From NCBI RefSeq assembly GCF_044324875.1, contig NZ_CP172185.1: a DNA stretch of 64,000 nt. One strand, given 5' to 3'. Each line of letters begins with the position of its first letter. The stretch's first letter is position 1. The notes beneath the pieces are model-generated. The model saw nothing but the letters and a program-made list of their open reading frames with translations, did not search any database and was not told the DNA's origin. The translations under genes and the position numbers were made by a program. Positions 268 through 59,783 of the stretch are shown here, one piece after another. Source of the DNA: Escherichia coli. GTDB taxonomy: Bacteria > Pseudomonadota > Gammaproteobacteria > Enterobacterales > Enterobacteriaceae.

Positions 268-600
268 CTTTCCAGACCTCAGAGTTAACCTGAAACCGGA
301 AAGCTTCAGGCACCCGCCGTTATCTTACCCTTCCTTAGCAAAATAGCTGTTTATTTATACAGTAAGTCCTGTTTCGGACTTCTCAATCCTCATTTGATCA
401 ACTGAAGCTGAACCCGTTTTTTTCTGCATGCCTCAATCGTCAAAATTCTTCGCCACCAGTCCGCACTGCCATAACTTGTCATATTGCAAAATGTAGCCAA
501 TTTGCTTCAGTCACCATCATCAAAAAAAGAAACATTCCAGAACTTCCGCATCTCGCCCAGTCGCTCCCACTTCTATACTGAATAGAAAACGCCAACATAA

Positions 601-1728
<1,128 letters not shown>

Positions 1729-56279: not shown

Positions 56280-56330
56280 CCCACAAAAATGCTTTTCCGT
56301 TCCTCTTTAATAAATTGTGCAACTGGTTAA

Positions 56331-56999
56331 CTACCAGTTGCCATAGGGATATTTTTTATCTTTGATAAACTCAAGTACATATTCATCGTCTCCAAGAGAA
56401 AAATCATGCCGGGAAATTCCTTTACACATTTCCATTTTTTCACCTGAAACCGTTTCTATCAGAATCTGCTTATCCGTCAGGCGAATATTGGGCTTGTCAG
56501 GTTTCTCCAGCCATACGCGTACTTTTCCTTCTGGAGCCAGACCGATTAACAGATACCGCAGATAATACTTTTCACTGCCACCGCCTGGTGGTGAATAAGG
56601 TGTGAGCATCAATTTCCAGACGTCTCCCGCCAGCGTTATCCAGGTTTCATACACTTTTTTATCAATCACTGAATCCCAGCAGAAATGGATAGACATAGGG
56701 GGATTTTTGGCTTTATTGAATGATAACACCCCAACCCGAAGATTATCTCTCCACTGACCAATAGTAGTGGAACTCGGAGCGGTAGCATCCAGCGTTCTGA
56801 ACTGATAATAGATACCATCAGTGTCCAATAGTTCTACATAGGTAACTTGTGCTGGTAGCGCATTAGGGTAGAAAAAAAGGAAATACCATTCATCATAGGG
56901 TGCAAGCAGTGATATTTTTTCTTTCGCTGCTGTCTGGACTGATCCGGCTATCATTAACGCAATGGTTAATCTATAAATTATTTTAGCTGTTATTTTCAT
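56331..56999 (-). CDS. Putative periplasmic immunity protein, paralog 2 (orphan immunity candidate)
   Basis: 222 aa with Sec signal peptide (MKITAKIIYRLTIALMIAGSVQTAAKEK); C-terminal half nearly identical to the upstream paralog; sits 3' of the Tle1-like effector. Confidence 0.65.
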   Translation of the reverse strand: MKITAKIIYRLTIALMIAGSVQTAAKEKISLLAPYDEWYFLFFYPNALPAQVTYVELLDTDGIYYQFRTLDATAPSSTTIGQWRDNLRVGVLSFNKAKNPPMSIHFCWDSVIDKKVYETWITLAGDVWKLMLTPYSPPGGGSEKYYLRYLLIGLAPEGKVRVWLEKPDKPNIRLTDKQILIETVSGEKMEMCKGISRHDFSLGDDEYVLEFIKDKKYPYGNW

Positions 57000-57005
57000 T
57001 GTTAC

Positions 57006-57665
57006 TTACCAGTTACCATAGGGATATTTTTTATCTTTGATAAACTCAAGAACATATTCATCGTCTCCAAGAGAAAAATCATGCCGGGAAATTCCTTTAC
57101 ACATTTCCATTTTTTCACCTGAAACCGTTTCTATCAGAATCTGCTTATCCGTCAGGCGAATATTGGGTTTGTCACGTTTATTAAGCCATACCCGTACTTT
57201 TCCTTCCGGAGCCAGCCCGATTAACAGAAACCGCAGATAATACTTTTCACTGCCACCGCATGGTGGTGAATAAGGTGTGAGCATCAATTTCCAGACGTCT
57301 CCCGCCAGTGTTATCCAGGTTTCATACACTTTTTTATCAATCACTGAATCCCAGCAAAAATGGATAGACATTGGTGGGTTTTTGGCTTTATTAAAAACTG
57401 ACGACATCCCTGATACTTTCTCGCTCCATTGTCCAACACTTCCTGGACTGGCATTGGTACTGGCCAGCGTTCTGAACTGATAATAGATGCCATCGGTATC
57501 TAATAATTCCACATAGGTAACTTGTGCTGGTAGGGAATCAGGGTAGAAAAAATTGAAATACCACTCATCATAGGGTGCAAGCAACAATATTTTTTCTTTC
57601 GCTGCTGCGTTAAAGTTAAGAACCATAGACGTAATAACAAACAGTAATTTTATATTAAATTCCAT
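57006..57665 (-). CDS. Putative periplasmic immunity protein, paralog 1 (likely cognate to the adjacent Tle1-like effector)
   Basis: Start at internal ATG 57665 (MEFNIKLLFVITSMVLNFNAAAKEK, signal peptide); this start overlaps the effector stop as ATGGAATTTAA; about 219 aa. Confidence 0.7.
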   Translation of the reverse strand: MEFNIKLLFVITSMVLNFNAAAKEKILLLAPYDEWYFNFFYPDSLPAQVTYVELLDTDGIYYQFRTLASTNASPGSVGQWSEKVSGMSSVFNKAKNPPMSIHFCWDSVIDKKVYETWITLAGDVWKLMLTPYSPPCGGSEKYYLRFLLIGLAPEGKVRVWLNKRDKPNIRLTDKQILIETVSGEKMEMCKGISRHDFSLGDDEYVLEFIKDKKYPYGNW

Positions 57666-59658
57666 TTTGTTTATTCCCTTGCATATCGTATATAGTTCTG
57701 GTCCAATTTTCATCCGGCCGATTAACAAAACTAAACGTCTTAAACGCTGATACTTCAGCAGACACCTTATTTTTTAATCGATAATCGACGGTATTCCAGT
57801 TGGAAGAACAGTGTAAATATTTCCCAATGGTTTTAAGCTCATCATCAGAAAAAGGCATCGGCGCTGTACACAAGAGAACGGCTTTACCCTGAGAAATTGC
57901 TTTTTCACATATTACCTTTAAATGACTGGGAACTTTTAATTCCTTATCAGCAACAGAAATGGCATCAAATACTACCCCTGCCTCTTTAGCGACTTCATAC
58001 ATTACTCTTAACGCAATCTTTGACCAGTCATTGGTGATCGTTCTGCGAAATGTCACCGCTGCAGCGACCCGTTTTCTCACATTACCTAAGTGGTCAGGCG
58101 ACGCTATTTCATCAATATTGGATTCAATTTTTAGGACACCAGAAGGCAGAATCGGAGCCAGCGTCGAATAGCGCCACAATAACTCTGCCTGCTGTACTGC
58201 TTTTTGGTAAGCGCTTGTCGCTTCCATCGGCACATTTCCCAGTACCGTTTCAATCGCCGGGCGACTTAAAAACAGGTACTCATCTTCCTGTGGGTCATAA
58301 CCGCCACCAATATCAGCATGTGATCCAGGGAAACTTAATTCTGGCCAGCTTTCCTTTATGCTGTTGAGGCAAAAGTTATAGCGACATTCGTTCATTGCTG
58401 TGAGCTGGAATACATGTTTGGCCACACCTGGCGGTAACTTCACTTTTACCGGAAAGTTATTACCATCATGAGGGTCAAAACCATCCATCAGCCCTCCGAT
58501 GGCTGCAACTGTGTCAAAAATACCTAAAAATTGCACTTCCCCGGAAGGTTTACCTAAATATTCAACTGACTGAAATGCCGTCGCAATGGTTTTAATCAGT
58601 ACGGGATCACGTTCAAATACGCGATTAGTAAAGTGCCGTGCGGCTGCCGCCCCACGACTAAAGCCAAATACGTCAAACTGTAGACGCTTAATTACTAGTT
58701 TAGCATCCTTTAAATCAACAATAATCTCTGCCAGTGTCTCACGAAGCAGTGATATCGCACGGTCAGTTTTGGCAATTACCCCAGTATCATTATTTCCTAG
58801 CCCCATTCCTACCAGAGAGTCTGCTTTATTATTTTCAGTGCCAATACCTTCAATATATATTTTTTCCTGAATATTAAATACATCATCATCTAAAACTAAT
58901 TGCCGATGATACAACTCATTCAACCAATGAATATTCGTATAGTAATTCAAATAGCTCTGTACTCCGGATCCCGTTTTACCCTGCTTGCTCATACATTGTT
59001 TATTAAACGAGGCCAAATCCTGGACATCCAGACCATAGGTTTCTGGTTGGCAAAAACTCATACGTAAATTCGTATTGGTTAAATTGTTTCCTGTGCCATC
59101 AAAGAATACGCCAATGGTGAGGATAATTTCTCGTTCAGGCGGTATTTCTGGTTTTTCCTCAACAGGTAAGAGCGTCGGTGGGAAAAGGCGATTATAATTT
59201 TCAGGTGTGAGTAAATAACTAAATTCTGTATTGGCTGTAAGATGCTTACAGTAGATATATTTGTAGTGTATTGTTATATATTGATAGTCGAGTTCATTTT
59301 CTTTTATTATAATCTGATTCTGAGTTAACGTTGCACCGCGGACTTCAATATAATAATAACTTTCCCATTTCCCATATTTATTAATACGATAAAAATCAAA
59401 CTCAAAACGGCATCGTTCGTTATTATTAATGCAATTCATCAGCAGCGGTGAGCTTTTATCGAGAATTTTACAAAATTGTATCGCTTGATGATTAATGCCA
59501 AATCCTGTATTACTCACTCCTCCCTGAAAACTAAAAACAAATATTTCATCTTCATGTCCCTGTTGATACCGATTCCCGACAGAGGCTTGCGTCCCGCATC
59601 CTGCAGAAATATTACCTTGTTGCTCCCCTGTAATGCGTAAATATATAATGTCACCCAT
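57655..59658 (-). CDS. Hcp-domain / DUF2235 (Tle1-like phospholipase) fusion protein, a putative T6SS Hcp-linked effector, 667 aa
   Basis: N-terminal ~155 aa match the Hcp/TssD family (IYLRITGEQQGNISAGCGTQASVGNRYQQGHEDEIFV..., KSSPLL motif). A Pro-rich linker (PPTLLPVEEKPEIPPERE) follows, then DUF2235 hallmarks: FFDGTGNN, nucleophile elbow GFSRGA, FDTVAA and HADIGGGY. Confidence 0.85.
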   Translation of the reverse strand: MGDIIYLRITGEQQGNISAGCGTQASVGNRYQQGHEDEIFVFSFQGGVSNTGFGINHQAIQFCKILDKSSPLLMNCINNNERCRFEFDFYRINKYGKWESYYYIEVRGATLTQNQIIIKENELDYQYITIHYKYIYCKHLTANTEFSYLLTPENYNRLFPPTLLPVEEKPEIPPEREIILTIGVFFDGTGNNLTNTNLRMSFCQPETYGLDVQDLASFNKQCMSKQGKTGSGVQSYLNYYTNIHWLNELYHRQLVLDDDVFNIQEKIYIEGIGTENNKADSLVGMGLGNNDTGVIAKTDRAISLLRETLAEIIVDLKDAKLVIKRLQFDVFGFSRGAAAARHFTNRVFERDPVLIKTIATAFQSVEYLGKPSGEVQFLGIFDTVAAIGGLMDGFDPHDGNNFPVKVKLPPGVAKHVFQLTAMNECRYNFCLNSIKESWPELSFPGSHADIGGGYDPQEDEYLFLSRPAIETVLGNVPMEATSAYQKAVQQAELLWRYSTLAPILPSGVLKIESNIDEIASPDHLGNVRKRVAAAVTFRRTITNDWSKIALRVMYEVAKEAGVVFDAISVADKELKVPSHLKVICEKAISQGKAVLLCTAPMPFSDDELKTIGKYLHCSSNWNTVDYRLKNKVSAEVSAFKTFSFVNRPDENWTRTIYDMQGNKQNGI

Positions 59659-59783
59659 ATGATTACACCCATTCCATAGATTTTAATTATATAATATAAA
59701 CTTAATAAACATCTCATTTGGCAATGTATATTAATTATATGTTTGGGCATAACAATTTTTTAATTACGTGATGCACTAATAAT

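Follow-up and report, generated by a model that had tools for sequence, protein, structure and literature searches.

The closest described counterpart of the locus studied here is Hcp-ET2 of ETEC PE321. Citing reviews credit it with T6SS-dependent interbacterial antagonism via Tle1 phospholipase activity, with ETI2 providing immunity (Ma et al. 2017, Virulence 8:1189, PMC5711352). For the toxin domain, the closest relative of solved structure is Tle1 of EAEC, in which a Ser197Ala substitution was reported to abolish activity (Flaugnatti et al. 2020, as relayed by a citing preprint).

We analysed a window of 64,000 nucleotides of Escherichia coli DNA, the whole stretch under study. It contains a gene, here called hcp-ET2, with the features of that class: a single polypeptide with an N-terminal Hcp and a C-terminal DUF2235 domain, an Enterobacteriaceae host and downstream immunity genes. 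Taking the class definition from citing reviews, we put at about 85% the probability that the protein belongs to the known Hcp-ET2 class, in which a specialized Hcp is joined to a Tle1-family phospholipase. An earlier, sequence-only reading had taken fusions of Hcp to DUF2235 to be known in Enterobacteriaceae, and this was correct, such fusions being the Hcp-ET2 class of Ma et al. (2017). The locus adds nothing new on toxin classes; this one is described and widespread in E. coli. It does correct the annotation, as public records mostly say “tube protein TssD/Hcp” for a gene that is a predicted lipase toxin followed by two putative immunity genes.

The cassette and its genes

The gene lies in a 3.5-kb cassette of low GC content. 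In K-12, the slot between ybbP and mnmH holds rhsD-ybbC in place of the cassette. The following features were located, with coordinates given within the window.

56280..59826, no strand assigned: low-GC cassette between mnmH/selU and ybbP, recognized by its GC content (about 40% compared to 51% for the whole window) and its flanking genes
59734..59763, minus strand: sigma-70-like -35/-10 pair 5' of hcp-ET2 (TTAAAA, 18-nt spacer, TATAAT), by consensus match only
57655..59658, minus strand: hcp-ET2 coding sequence, 667 aa, 75.2 kDa, with an ATG start and the stop codon included in the range
57006..57665, minus strand: immunity candidate 1, DUF2931, 219 aa, with the RefSeq start (Pfam PF11153, E 5.4e-28)
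56331..56999, minus strand: immunity candidate 2, DUF2931 paralogue, 222 aa (Pfam PF11153, E 5.2e-26)
56319..56341, minus strand: terminator-like hairpin that overlaps the immunity candidate 2 stop codon

Judged from the sequence, hcp-ET2 and the two downstream DUF2931 genes are one operon. The end of the toxin gene and the start of immunity candidate 1 share 11 bp, and a gap of 6 bp separates the two candidates from each other. The hcp-ET2 promoter is a candidate only, because a promoter scan of the hcp-ET2 region found no enrichment of promoter-like sites over shuffles. The open reading frame at 57655..59658 is real and looks intact, and RefSeq labels the same frame in 99.7%-identical DNA “Hcp family type VI secretion system effector”. 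A pseudogene reading of the allele here is not supported, given the intact frame and the invariant motifs; decayed copies occur elsewhere.

The two immunity candidates are 79% identical (BLASTP), and both carry N-terminal signal-peptide-like sequences, that of candidate 1 being MEFNIKLLFVITSMVLNFNAAA/KEK. A longer, TTG-initiated frame of 240 aa (57006..57728) was considered for the first immunity gene and rejected for the RefSeq ATG at 57665, because the latter yields an N-terminus that is a canonical signal peptide. Neither candidate has a Cys in its first 30 residues, the place of a lipobox. In a simple pattern scan of 106 full-length close homologues, the lipobox was missing in 89 and present in 17. 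Sequence searches with the DUF2931 candidates returned no solved structure and no NCBIfam model match. The immunity C-terminal segments exist as alternatives, KGISRHDFSLGDDEYVLEF as opposed to NGRSAYKHGYSYPESTKNF. Under the unusual delivery geometry considered below, the recombining pair of immunity genes, together with a replaceable patch of the toxin at residues 566-611, could mark the specificity interface.

Domains of the fusion protein

The protein was divided into an Hcp domain, a linker and a lipase domain, all encoded on the minus strand.

59182..59658, minus strand: Hcp/TssD tube-protein domain, residues 1-159 (from TIGR03344, PF05638, solved Hcp structures and model superposition)
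59128..59181, minus strand: Pro/Glu-rich interdomain linker PPTLLPVEEKPEIPPERE, residues 160-177, read from the translation
57658..59127, minus strand: Tle1-family (DUF2235) alpha/beta-hydrolase phospholipase domain, residues 178-667, 54.5 kDa (from phmmer, Foldseek and PF09994)
59086..59100, minus strand: DGTGN motif, residues 187-191, invariant in 114 homologues and aligned with D44-G47 of EAEC Tle1
58657..58659, minus strand: Ser334 codon AGT, predicted nucleophile in GFSRG (332-336), invariant and aligned with Ser197 of EAEC Tle1
58513..58515, minus strand: Asp382 codon GAC, predicted triad acid in FDTVAA (381-386), invariant and aligned with Asp245 of EAEC Tle1
58318..58320, minus strand: His447 codon CAT, predicted triad base in HADIGGGY (447-454), invariant and aligned with His310 of EAEC Tle1

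The N-terminal domain scored 125.4 bits against the NCBIfam model TIGR03344 for TssD (cut-off 58.9), with residues 1-149 covering model positions 1-163 of 167, and matched Pfam PF05638 (T6SS_HCP) over residues 6-138 with an E-value of 5.8e-13. Among solved structures, its sequence matched 3HE1, 6A2V and 5MXN, the last of which is Hcp within the V. cholerae sheath-tube. A full-length AlphaFold2 model made from a 20-sequence alignment was poor (pLDDT 61.9, pTM 0.43, active-site region below 50) and was, therefore, used for the Hcp part only. This part, with block pLDDT mostly 53-88, superposed on 6A2V, 3HE1, 5MXN and 4HKH with target-normalised TM-scores of 0.74-0.88 and rmsd of 2.1-4.5 Å. As modelled, it has the full, conserved fold of an Hcp. 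The linker, probably flexible and with a conservation of 0.48, is among the lowest 20-residue blocks in the family alignment and varies there in length; its residues 162-172 have AlphaFold2 pLDDT below 50.

The lipase domain was matched to EAEC Tle1 (6SJL/6SKI) over residues 173-661 by phmmer against the PDB (E 1.4e-127), and identity across the catalytic part (residues 173-466) is about 54%. Pfam PF09994 (Tle1-like) aligned to residues 369-460 only (E 9.6e-11), with a further, weak match at 329-343. We took the domain to start near residue 180 because of the full-length EAEC Tle1 alignment and the invariant GVFFDGTGNN (183-192). A second AlphaFold2 model, built for residues 173-667 from 114 sequences, reached pLDDT 72 and pTM 0.77, and Foldseek placed it on 6SJL_E and 6SKI_F with TM-scores of 0.75-0.76. 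The 10-residue blocks that contain the triad have a mean pLDDT of 76-84, and the active-site loops are moderately confident. The triad, GFSRG and DGTGN were invariant in the 114 homologues (43-94% identity), which come from E. coli, Salmonella, Enterobacter, Kluyvera, Lelliottia, Cedecea and others. The DGTGN motif is likely the oxyanion-hole loop.

These results agree closely with the sequence-only reading, which had placed the Hcp module at residues 1 to about 155, the Pro-rich linker at about 158-178 and the start of the DUF2235 domain near 180. It had also named Ser334, Asp382 and His447, with the codon coordinates listed above, as the triad; the assignment stands and matches the EAEC Tle1 triad residue for residue, and the spacings it gave, 48 residues from Ser to Asp and 65 from Asp to His, are those of Ser197/Asp245/His310. 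Pfam profiles and structure prediction, both of which it had proposed as checks, recovered Hcp and Tle1-family matches alike. The sequence matches lie well outside what chance would produce.

Delivery, deployment and target

No T6SS core genes lie in the window. A genome with a 99.7%-identical locus carries a T6SS in its aspV island; this system is laid out as described for E. coli T6SS2 and has a frameshifted VasL-domain gene. The Hcp domain is 36% identical to the 159-aa T6SS Hcp of that genome and 28% identical to its 172-aa Hcp. The T6SS that fires Hcp-ET2 is most likely T6SS2. The Hcp domain would co-assemble with the canonical Hcp of a chromosomal T6SS, likely with no more than one fused subunit per ring, and sheath contraction would expel Hcp-ET2 into a Gram-negative neighbour. 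There, in the periplasm, Ser334, Asp382 and His447 would hydrolyse membrane phospholipids, leading to the death of cells without immunity. The two co-transcribed DUF2931 (Tli1-type) proteins would reach the periplasm via cleavable, non-lipoprotein signal peptides and would shield the producer and its kin. By analogy with the described systems, we infer enzymatic activity, T6SS-dependent export, a periplasmic site of action and an immunity function for the locus.

The sequence-only reading had called the lipase tube cargo. In T6SS terms, a covalent fusion is a “specialized” Hcp and not a “cargo” effector, and transport inside the tube was an assumption. The lipase domain, even when packed as compactly as possible, has a computed diameter of about 5.0 nm. 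This exceeds the measured inner diameter of an Hcp ring, 45 Å, and the lumenal-cargo picture should, thus, not be read literally. Since the folded 54.5-kDa lipase is too big for a single Hcp ring, the delivery geometry is perhaps novel, with one fused subunit in a terminal or VgrG-proximal ring and its lipase outside the lumen, or with the lipase threaded through at least three rings. That such a geometry is new among T6SS effectors is a tentative suggestion, which we think possible but doubtful. If true, it would concern the whole Hcp-ET2 class, beyond this single locus. The general question touched here is how a tube subunit carries a toxin domain bigger than the lumen.

The size mismatch also favors a proposal that the fusion is no built-in part of the tube, with the Hcp domain as a mere recognition or adaptor module and a single lipase held outside the lumen, for example as a terminal cap or at the tip next to VgrG. 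Two rings are needed even for a two-domain cargo of 39 kDa, and EAEC Tle1 rides the VgrG spike and not the tube, according to the PDB titles. However, the Hcp fold is complete and conserved, published discussion prefers one Hcp-ET per otherwise canonical ring, and a lipase of elongated or multi-lobed shape could extend across several of them. We consider this proposal unlikely, if less so than the other alternatives. The lumenal model is a proposal for small Hcp-ET toxins, and an outside-tube geometry would differ from it.

The cassette could be an orphan relic that is intact in sequence yet undeployed, without a compatible or functional T6SS or without expression, while its immunity genes are under selection against toxin-bearing neighbours. 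The locus is distant from any T6SS cluster, and the frameshifted VasL-domain gene in T6SS2 of the near-identical genome would fit such a relic. So would a pseudogenised hcp-ET2 copy in NZ_CP039403.1, the N-terminally truncated Salmonella versions of 549 aa, and K-12, which is without a T6SS and retains the related orphan Hcp-ET gene yhhZ. These points are set against alleles that were full length wherever examined, an exact protein that is already public on 189 contigs, and catalytic motifs that are all invariant. Also, the dN/dS of hcp-ET2 was 0.25-0.37 compared to three other E. coli alleles, with few substitutions, and it stayed below 1 in both domains (0.13-0.14 for Hcp and 0.5-0.66 for the lipase, again from few, within-species substitutions). 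The ETEC Hcp-ET2 was reported to be functional. An undeployed relic is, on balance, improbable.

The toxin-domain gene was found by blastn in 573 of 5,426 complete E. coli genomes, ST131 included. Queried with the lipase domain, blastn in its “distant” setting recovered this gene alone and did not reach EAEC-type tle1. As roughly a tenth of complete E. coli genomes have the gene, those of the pandemic ST131 lineage among them, the cassette probably aids competition in the gut. The lipase might instead be aimed chiefly at eukaryotic host membranes and act as a virulence factor. Extraintestinal lineages such as ST131 commonly carry the cassette, the substrates of the Tle family are lipids shared by bacteria and eukaryotes, and EAEC Tle1 is listed with both prokaryotic and eukaryotic targets in a review table. 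This role is quite improbable as the chief one, as the two dedicated, periplasm-directed immunity genes point to protection of self and kin from an antibacterial toxin that acts in the periplasm, and Hcp-ET2 was reported as antibacterial. A role in virulence is compatible with the main antibacterial reading. That the protein is a plain structural tube protein with a catalytically inert C-terminal extension, as the NCBI names for the exact sequence (“type VI secretion system tube protein TssD/Hcp”) would have it, is barely credible, since these names mirror the N-terminal model match only. Its C-terminal 490 residues make up an entire Tle1 homologue, whose catalytic residues are invariant and whose gene has immunity-type genes next to it.

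Comparison with known systems

Remote relatives are Tle1 (PA3290; 4O5P) and TleB (9J3F) of P. aeruginosa, which belong to the same DUF2235 superfamily and share the GxSxG nucleophile elbow; both were picked up by sequence (E 1.8e-06 and 2.3e-10, respectively) and by fold. They show about 16% identity and a TM-score of about 0.35 to the domain here, and they are larger (about 780-880 aa), with extra domains and without an Hcp fusion. The Hcp domains of two other specialized Hcps of E. coli, Hcp-ET3-4 (aroP-pdhR locus) and the Hcp-ET1-like YhhZ (yhhY-ggt locus), are 59-60% identical to the one here over 155 residues, well above the 28-36% seen with the T6SS-cluster Hcps of a cassette-bearing genome, and all three are orphan cassettes with downstream immunity genes. 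The C-terminal toxins of those two are nucleases (pyocin S/colicin DNase and HNH), span about 230-430 residues and work in the cytoplasm, in contrast to the 490-residue lipase here, which is predicted to act in the periplasm.

EAEC Tle1 (EC042_4534; 6SJL, 6SKI) has the same lipase fold and family as the C-terminal domain here, and its triad, S197/D245/H310, is identical in aligned position and spacing to S334/D382/H447. EAEC Tle1 is a free cargo effector whose gene lies within the T6SS-1 cluster and which loads onto VgrG at its C-terminal TTR domain, whereas the lipase here is fused to Hcp in an orphan cassette. Its immunity protein, Tli1, is a DUF2931 protein like both candidates here; Tli1 is described as an outer-membrane lipoprotein with a lipobox, whereas the candidates here lack the lipobox Cys. 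As described in citing reviews, Hcp-ET2/ETI2 of ETEC PE321 (A31K_02346) shows no demonstrable difference from this locus and shares with it the Hcp and DUF2235/Tle1 layout, the Enterobacteriaceae host and the downstream immunity.

The Hcp and lipase domains of the fusion protein

The hcp-ET2 gene (57655..59658, minus strand) is an intact reading frame of 667 codons with an ATG start, and a script reproduced every coordinate in the sequence-only reading, from motif residues to triad codons. The following protein features were placed by script check.

Residues 160-177, minus strand: interdomain linker PPTLLPVEEKPEIPPERE
Residues 332-336, minus strand: GFSRG, with the Ser334 codon at 58657..58659
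Residues 381-386, minus strand: FDTVAA, with the Asp382 codon at 58513..58515
Residues 447-454, minus strand: HADIGGGY, with the His447 codon at 58318..58320

By its profile matches and predicted fold, the N-terminal domain is an Hcp, as had been proposed. It scored 125 bits over residues 1-149 against NCBIfam TIGR03344 (TssD; curated cut-off 58.9) and matched Pfam T6SS_HCP with an E of 5.8e-13. Its sequence also matched the solved Hcp structures 3HE1 (E 1.2e-14), 6A2V, and 5MXN, and the Hcp part of the full-length AlphaFold2 model superposed on 6A2V, 3HE1, 5MXN (V. cholerae Hcp in the sheath-tube), and 4HKH (Hcp1 of enteroaggregative E. coli, EAEC), with target-normalised TM scores of 0.74-0.88.

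The C-terminal 490 residues are, on alignment and modeling, a Tle1-family lipase, in agreement with the DUF2235 domain first recognized from the sequence alone. The Pfam DUF2235 model (PF09994) aligned to residues 369-460 only (E 9.6e-11), and a phmmer search of the PDB aligned residues 173-661 with EAEC Tle1 (6SJL and 6SKI; E 1.4e-127), and identity reached about 54% in the catalytic part (173-466). Residues 173-667 were also modelled with AlphaFold2 from 114 homologues (pLDDT 72, pTM 0.77). The best structural matches of this model were 6SJL_E and 6SKI_F (TM 0.75-0.76, E ~1e-42); P. aeruginosa Tle1 (4O5P) and TleB (9J3F) ranked far below them.

Ser334, Asp382, and His447, the triad that had been predicted, fall on chain positions 197, 245, and 310 of EAEC Tle1 in the phmmer alignment. 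According to a preprint that cites Flaugnatti et al., the catalytic triad of EAEC Tle1 is Ser197, Asp245, and His310, and phospholipase activity is lost when Ser197 is changed to Ala. Because the residues align in this way, the spacings of 48 and 65 residues given in the sequence-only reading are exactly those of EAEC Tle1. All three residues, the GFSRG elbow, and a DGTGN motif (residues 187-191) were invariant in both homologue alignments (20 and 114 sequences; 43-94% identity), which included E. coli, Salmonella, Enterobacter, Kluyvera, Atlantibacter, Lelliottia, and Cedecea.

The Pro-rich linker, expected at about residues 158-178, contains 6 Pro and 5 Glu in its 18 positions. It lies within a block that ranks with the least conserved in the family alignment (0.48) and that varies in length, and residues 162-172 had a pLDDT below 50 in the full-length model. 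Thus, residues 160-177 fit a flexible tether.

Immunity candidates and the chromosomal slot

Two DUF2931 genes lie directly downstream of the toxin gene on the same strand.

57006..57665, minus strand: DUF2931 gene 1, 219 aa (Pfam PF11153, E 5e-28; ATG at 57665 per RefSeq)
56331..56999, minus strand: DUF2931 gene 2, 222 aa (Pfam PF11153, E 5e-26)

Gene 1 and the toxin gene share 11 bp at the toxin stop, and only 6 bp separate gene 1 from gene 2, an arrangement that suggests a single operon. A terminator-like hairpin overlaps the stop codon of the last gene. A consensus-like site upstream of the toxin gene is a weak promoter candidate because comparable sites were not enriched over shuffles. 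A 240-aa, TTG-start version of gene 1 (57006..57728, minus strand; 74-bp toxin overlap) was rejected, as the RefSeq ATG gives a 219-aa protein with a normal signal peptide.

At the protein level, the pair share 79% identity. Both begin with a signal-peptide-like sequence that has no cysteine and, therefore, are predicted to be exported and not lipidated. A preprint places EAEC Tli1, which confers immunity to EAEC Tle1, in the DUF2931 family as well, with the difference that it carries a lipobox. In a simple pattern scan of 106 full-length close homologues, the lipobox was absent from 89 and present in 17.

The tandem genes (56331..57665, minus strand; 332..1666 in loci L004, L005, and L006 from other genomes) have a mosaic structure. 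Across the final ~360 nt, the two copies match at 92-100% in each 60-nt block, and identity is only 63-72% in the adjoining 120 nt upstream. In other E. coli alleles, one or the other paralogue has an alternative C-terminal segment, CNGRSAYKHGYSYPESTKNF, in place of CKGISRHDFSLGDDEYVLEF; in the window, both copies have the CKGISRHDFSLGDDEYVLEF version. The mosaic identity and swapped segments point to gene conversion between the paralogues.

The window is E. coli chromosomal DNA. The cassette (~56280..59826) has 40% GC compared to 51% for the window, and sits between hyi-gcl-allR-allA-allS-mnmH and ybbP-ybbA-tesA. In K-12 MG1655 (locus L010, 4832..12132), the ybbP-selU/mnmH interval instead holds rhsD-ybbC and rhs remnants. 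Therefore, this is one slot with alternative T6SS toxin cassettes depending on the strain.

Distribution and variation

By megablast (query coverage of 80% or more), the complete cassette was found in 569 of 5,426 complete E. coli genomes. Lipase-domain DNA was found in 573, O25b:H4-ST131 among them, always chromosomal and in single copy. Full-length homologues that join Hcp to DUF2235 abound in Enterobacteriaceae, and the exact 667-aa sequence is already public (189 contigs, several NCBI accessions). RefSeq labels the fusion "Hcp family type VI secretion system effector" or "tube protein TssD", and each of its two partner genes "DUF2931 family protein". Public records carry this exact 667-aa sequence as "type VI secretion system tube protein TssD/Hcp", a name that hides the lipase toxin domain of 490 residues.

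The window allele shows no sign of decay. Based on few substitutions, dN/dS against three other E. coli alleles was 0.25-0.37 overall, 0.13-0.14 for the Hcp domain, and 0.5-0.66 for the lipase. In the cassette of another E. coli genome, NZ_CP039403.1 (L009, 2485..5809), the toxin gene is frameshifted with an internal stop and the second DUF2931 gene is frameshifted. In some Salmonella homologues, most of the Hcp domain is missing: four S. enterica proteins (P0017-P0020; 549 aa, ~70% identical) start near window residue 116, inside that domain. These may be remnants of Hcp-ET2 that lost their N-terminus, or their starts may be mis-called.

A homologue from E. coli O88:H1 (P0002, 95% identical) differs at 34 residues, 27 of them within 566-611 (57826..57963, minus strand), which also ranks with the most variable lipase-domain regions in the family alignment. 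This stretch may be a specificity patch replaced by recombination. The L005 allele has a replaced patch at toxin residues 252-266.

Delivery and relation to known systems

No T6SS core genes were found in the 64-kb window. We inspected NZ_OZ547043.1 (L008), whose cassette is 99.7% identical. Its aspV island (L008, 7365..38791) holds a T6SS running from tssB to tssM with a gene for a 159-aa Hcp after it, and a divergent operon encoding a 172-aa Hcp, VgrG, and an Rhs protein (toxin). This matches the E. coli T6SS2 layout, described as vipA2-hcp2A plus divergent hcp2B-vgrG2. The VasL-domain gene is annotated as frameshifted and, thus, activity of this T6SS is uncertain.

Compared to the two Hcps of this island, the fusion's Hcp domain has 36% (159-aa Hcp) and 28% (172-aa Hcp) identity; it is 59-60% identical to the Hcp domains of two orphan Hcp-ETs at other sites, Hcp-ET3-4 (aroP-pdhR) and YhhZ (yhhY-ggt; 59%). 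From these identities and the T6SS2 dependence reported for Hcp-ET1 in a preprint, our best guess is that T6SS2 delivers the fusion. The majority of E. coli genomes retain yhhZ-yrhA, K-12 derivatives without T6SS among them (L003, 11974..13643; L007, 19819..21488).

The mechanism is most likely that of the Hcp-ET2 class. The Hcp domain would be built into the tube alongside canonical Hcp, and the lipase would be driven out into a neighbouring cell, where it would act on phospholipids from the periplasmic side; both DUF2931 proteins, in the periplasm, would shield the producer and its kin. Geometry is the weak point of this proposal. The lipase domain (54.5 kDa) has a computed minimal compact diameter of ~5.0 nm, compared to an Hcp ring inner diameter of 45 Å in a recent cryo-EM study. 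In that study, a 39-kDa cargo of two domains already takes up two rings, and the authors argue that no more than one Hcp-ET subunit fits per ring. The lipase could be threaded through several rings or sit outside the lumen. The earlier term "tube cargo" is better taken as "specialized Hcp", and lumenal location is an assumption. How large Hcp-fused toxins are accommodated concerns the whole class.

Otherwise, the original observation was accurate and its interpretation is supported, including the assignment to a known Hcp-DUF2235 class. According to two reviews that summarise Ma et al. (2017), Hcp-ET2 of ETEC PE321 (reference locus A31K_02346) has DUF2235 as its toxin part, mediates T6SS-dependent interbacterial antagonism via Tle1 phospholipase activity, and has ETI2 as its immunity protein. 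The window gene is a member of this already described, widely distributed effector class, sharing the defining architecture and context given in the class descriptions.
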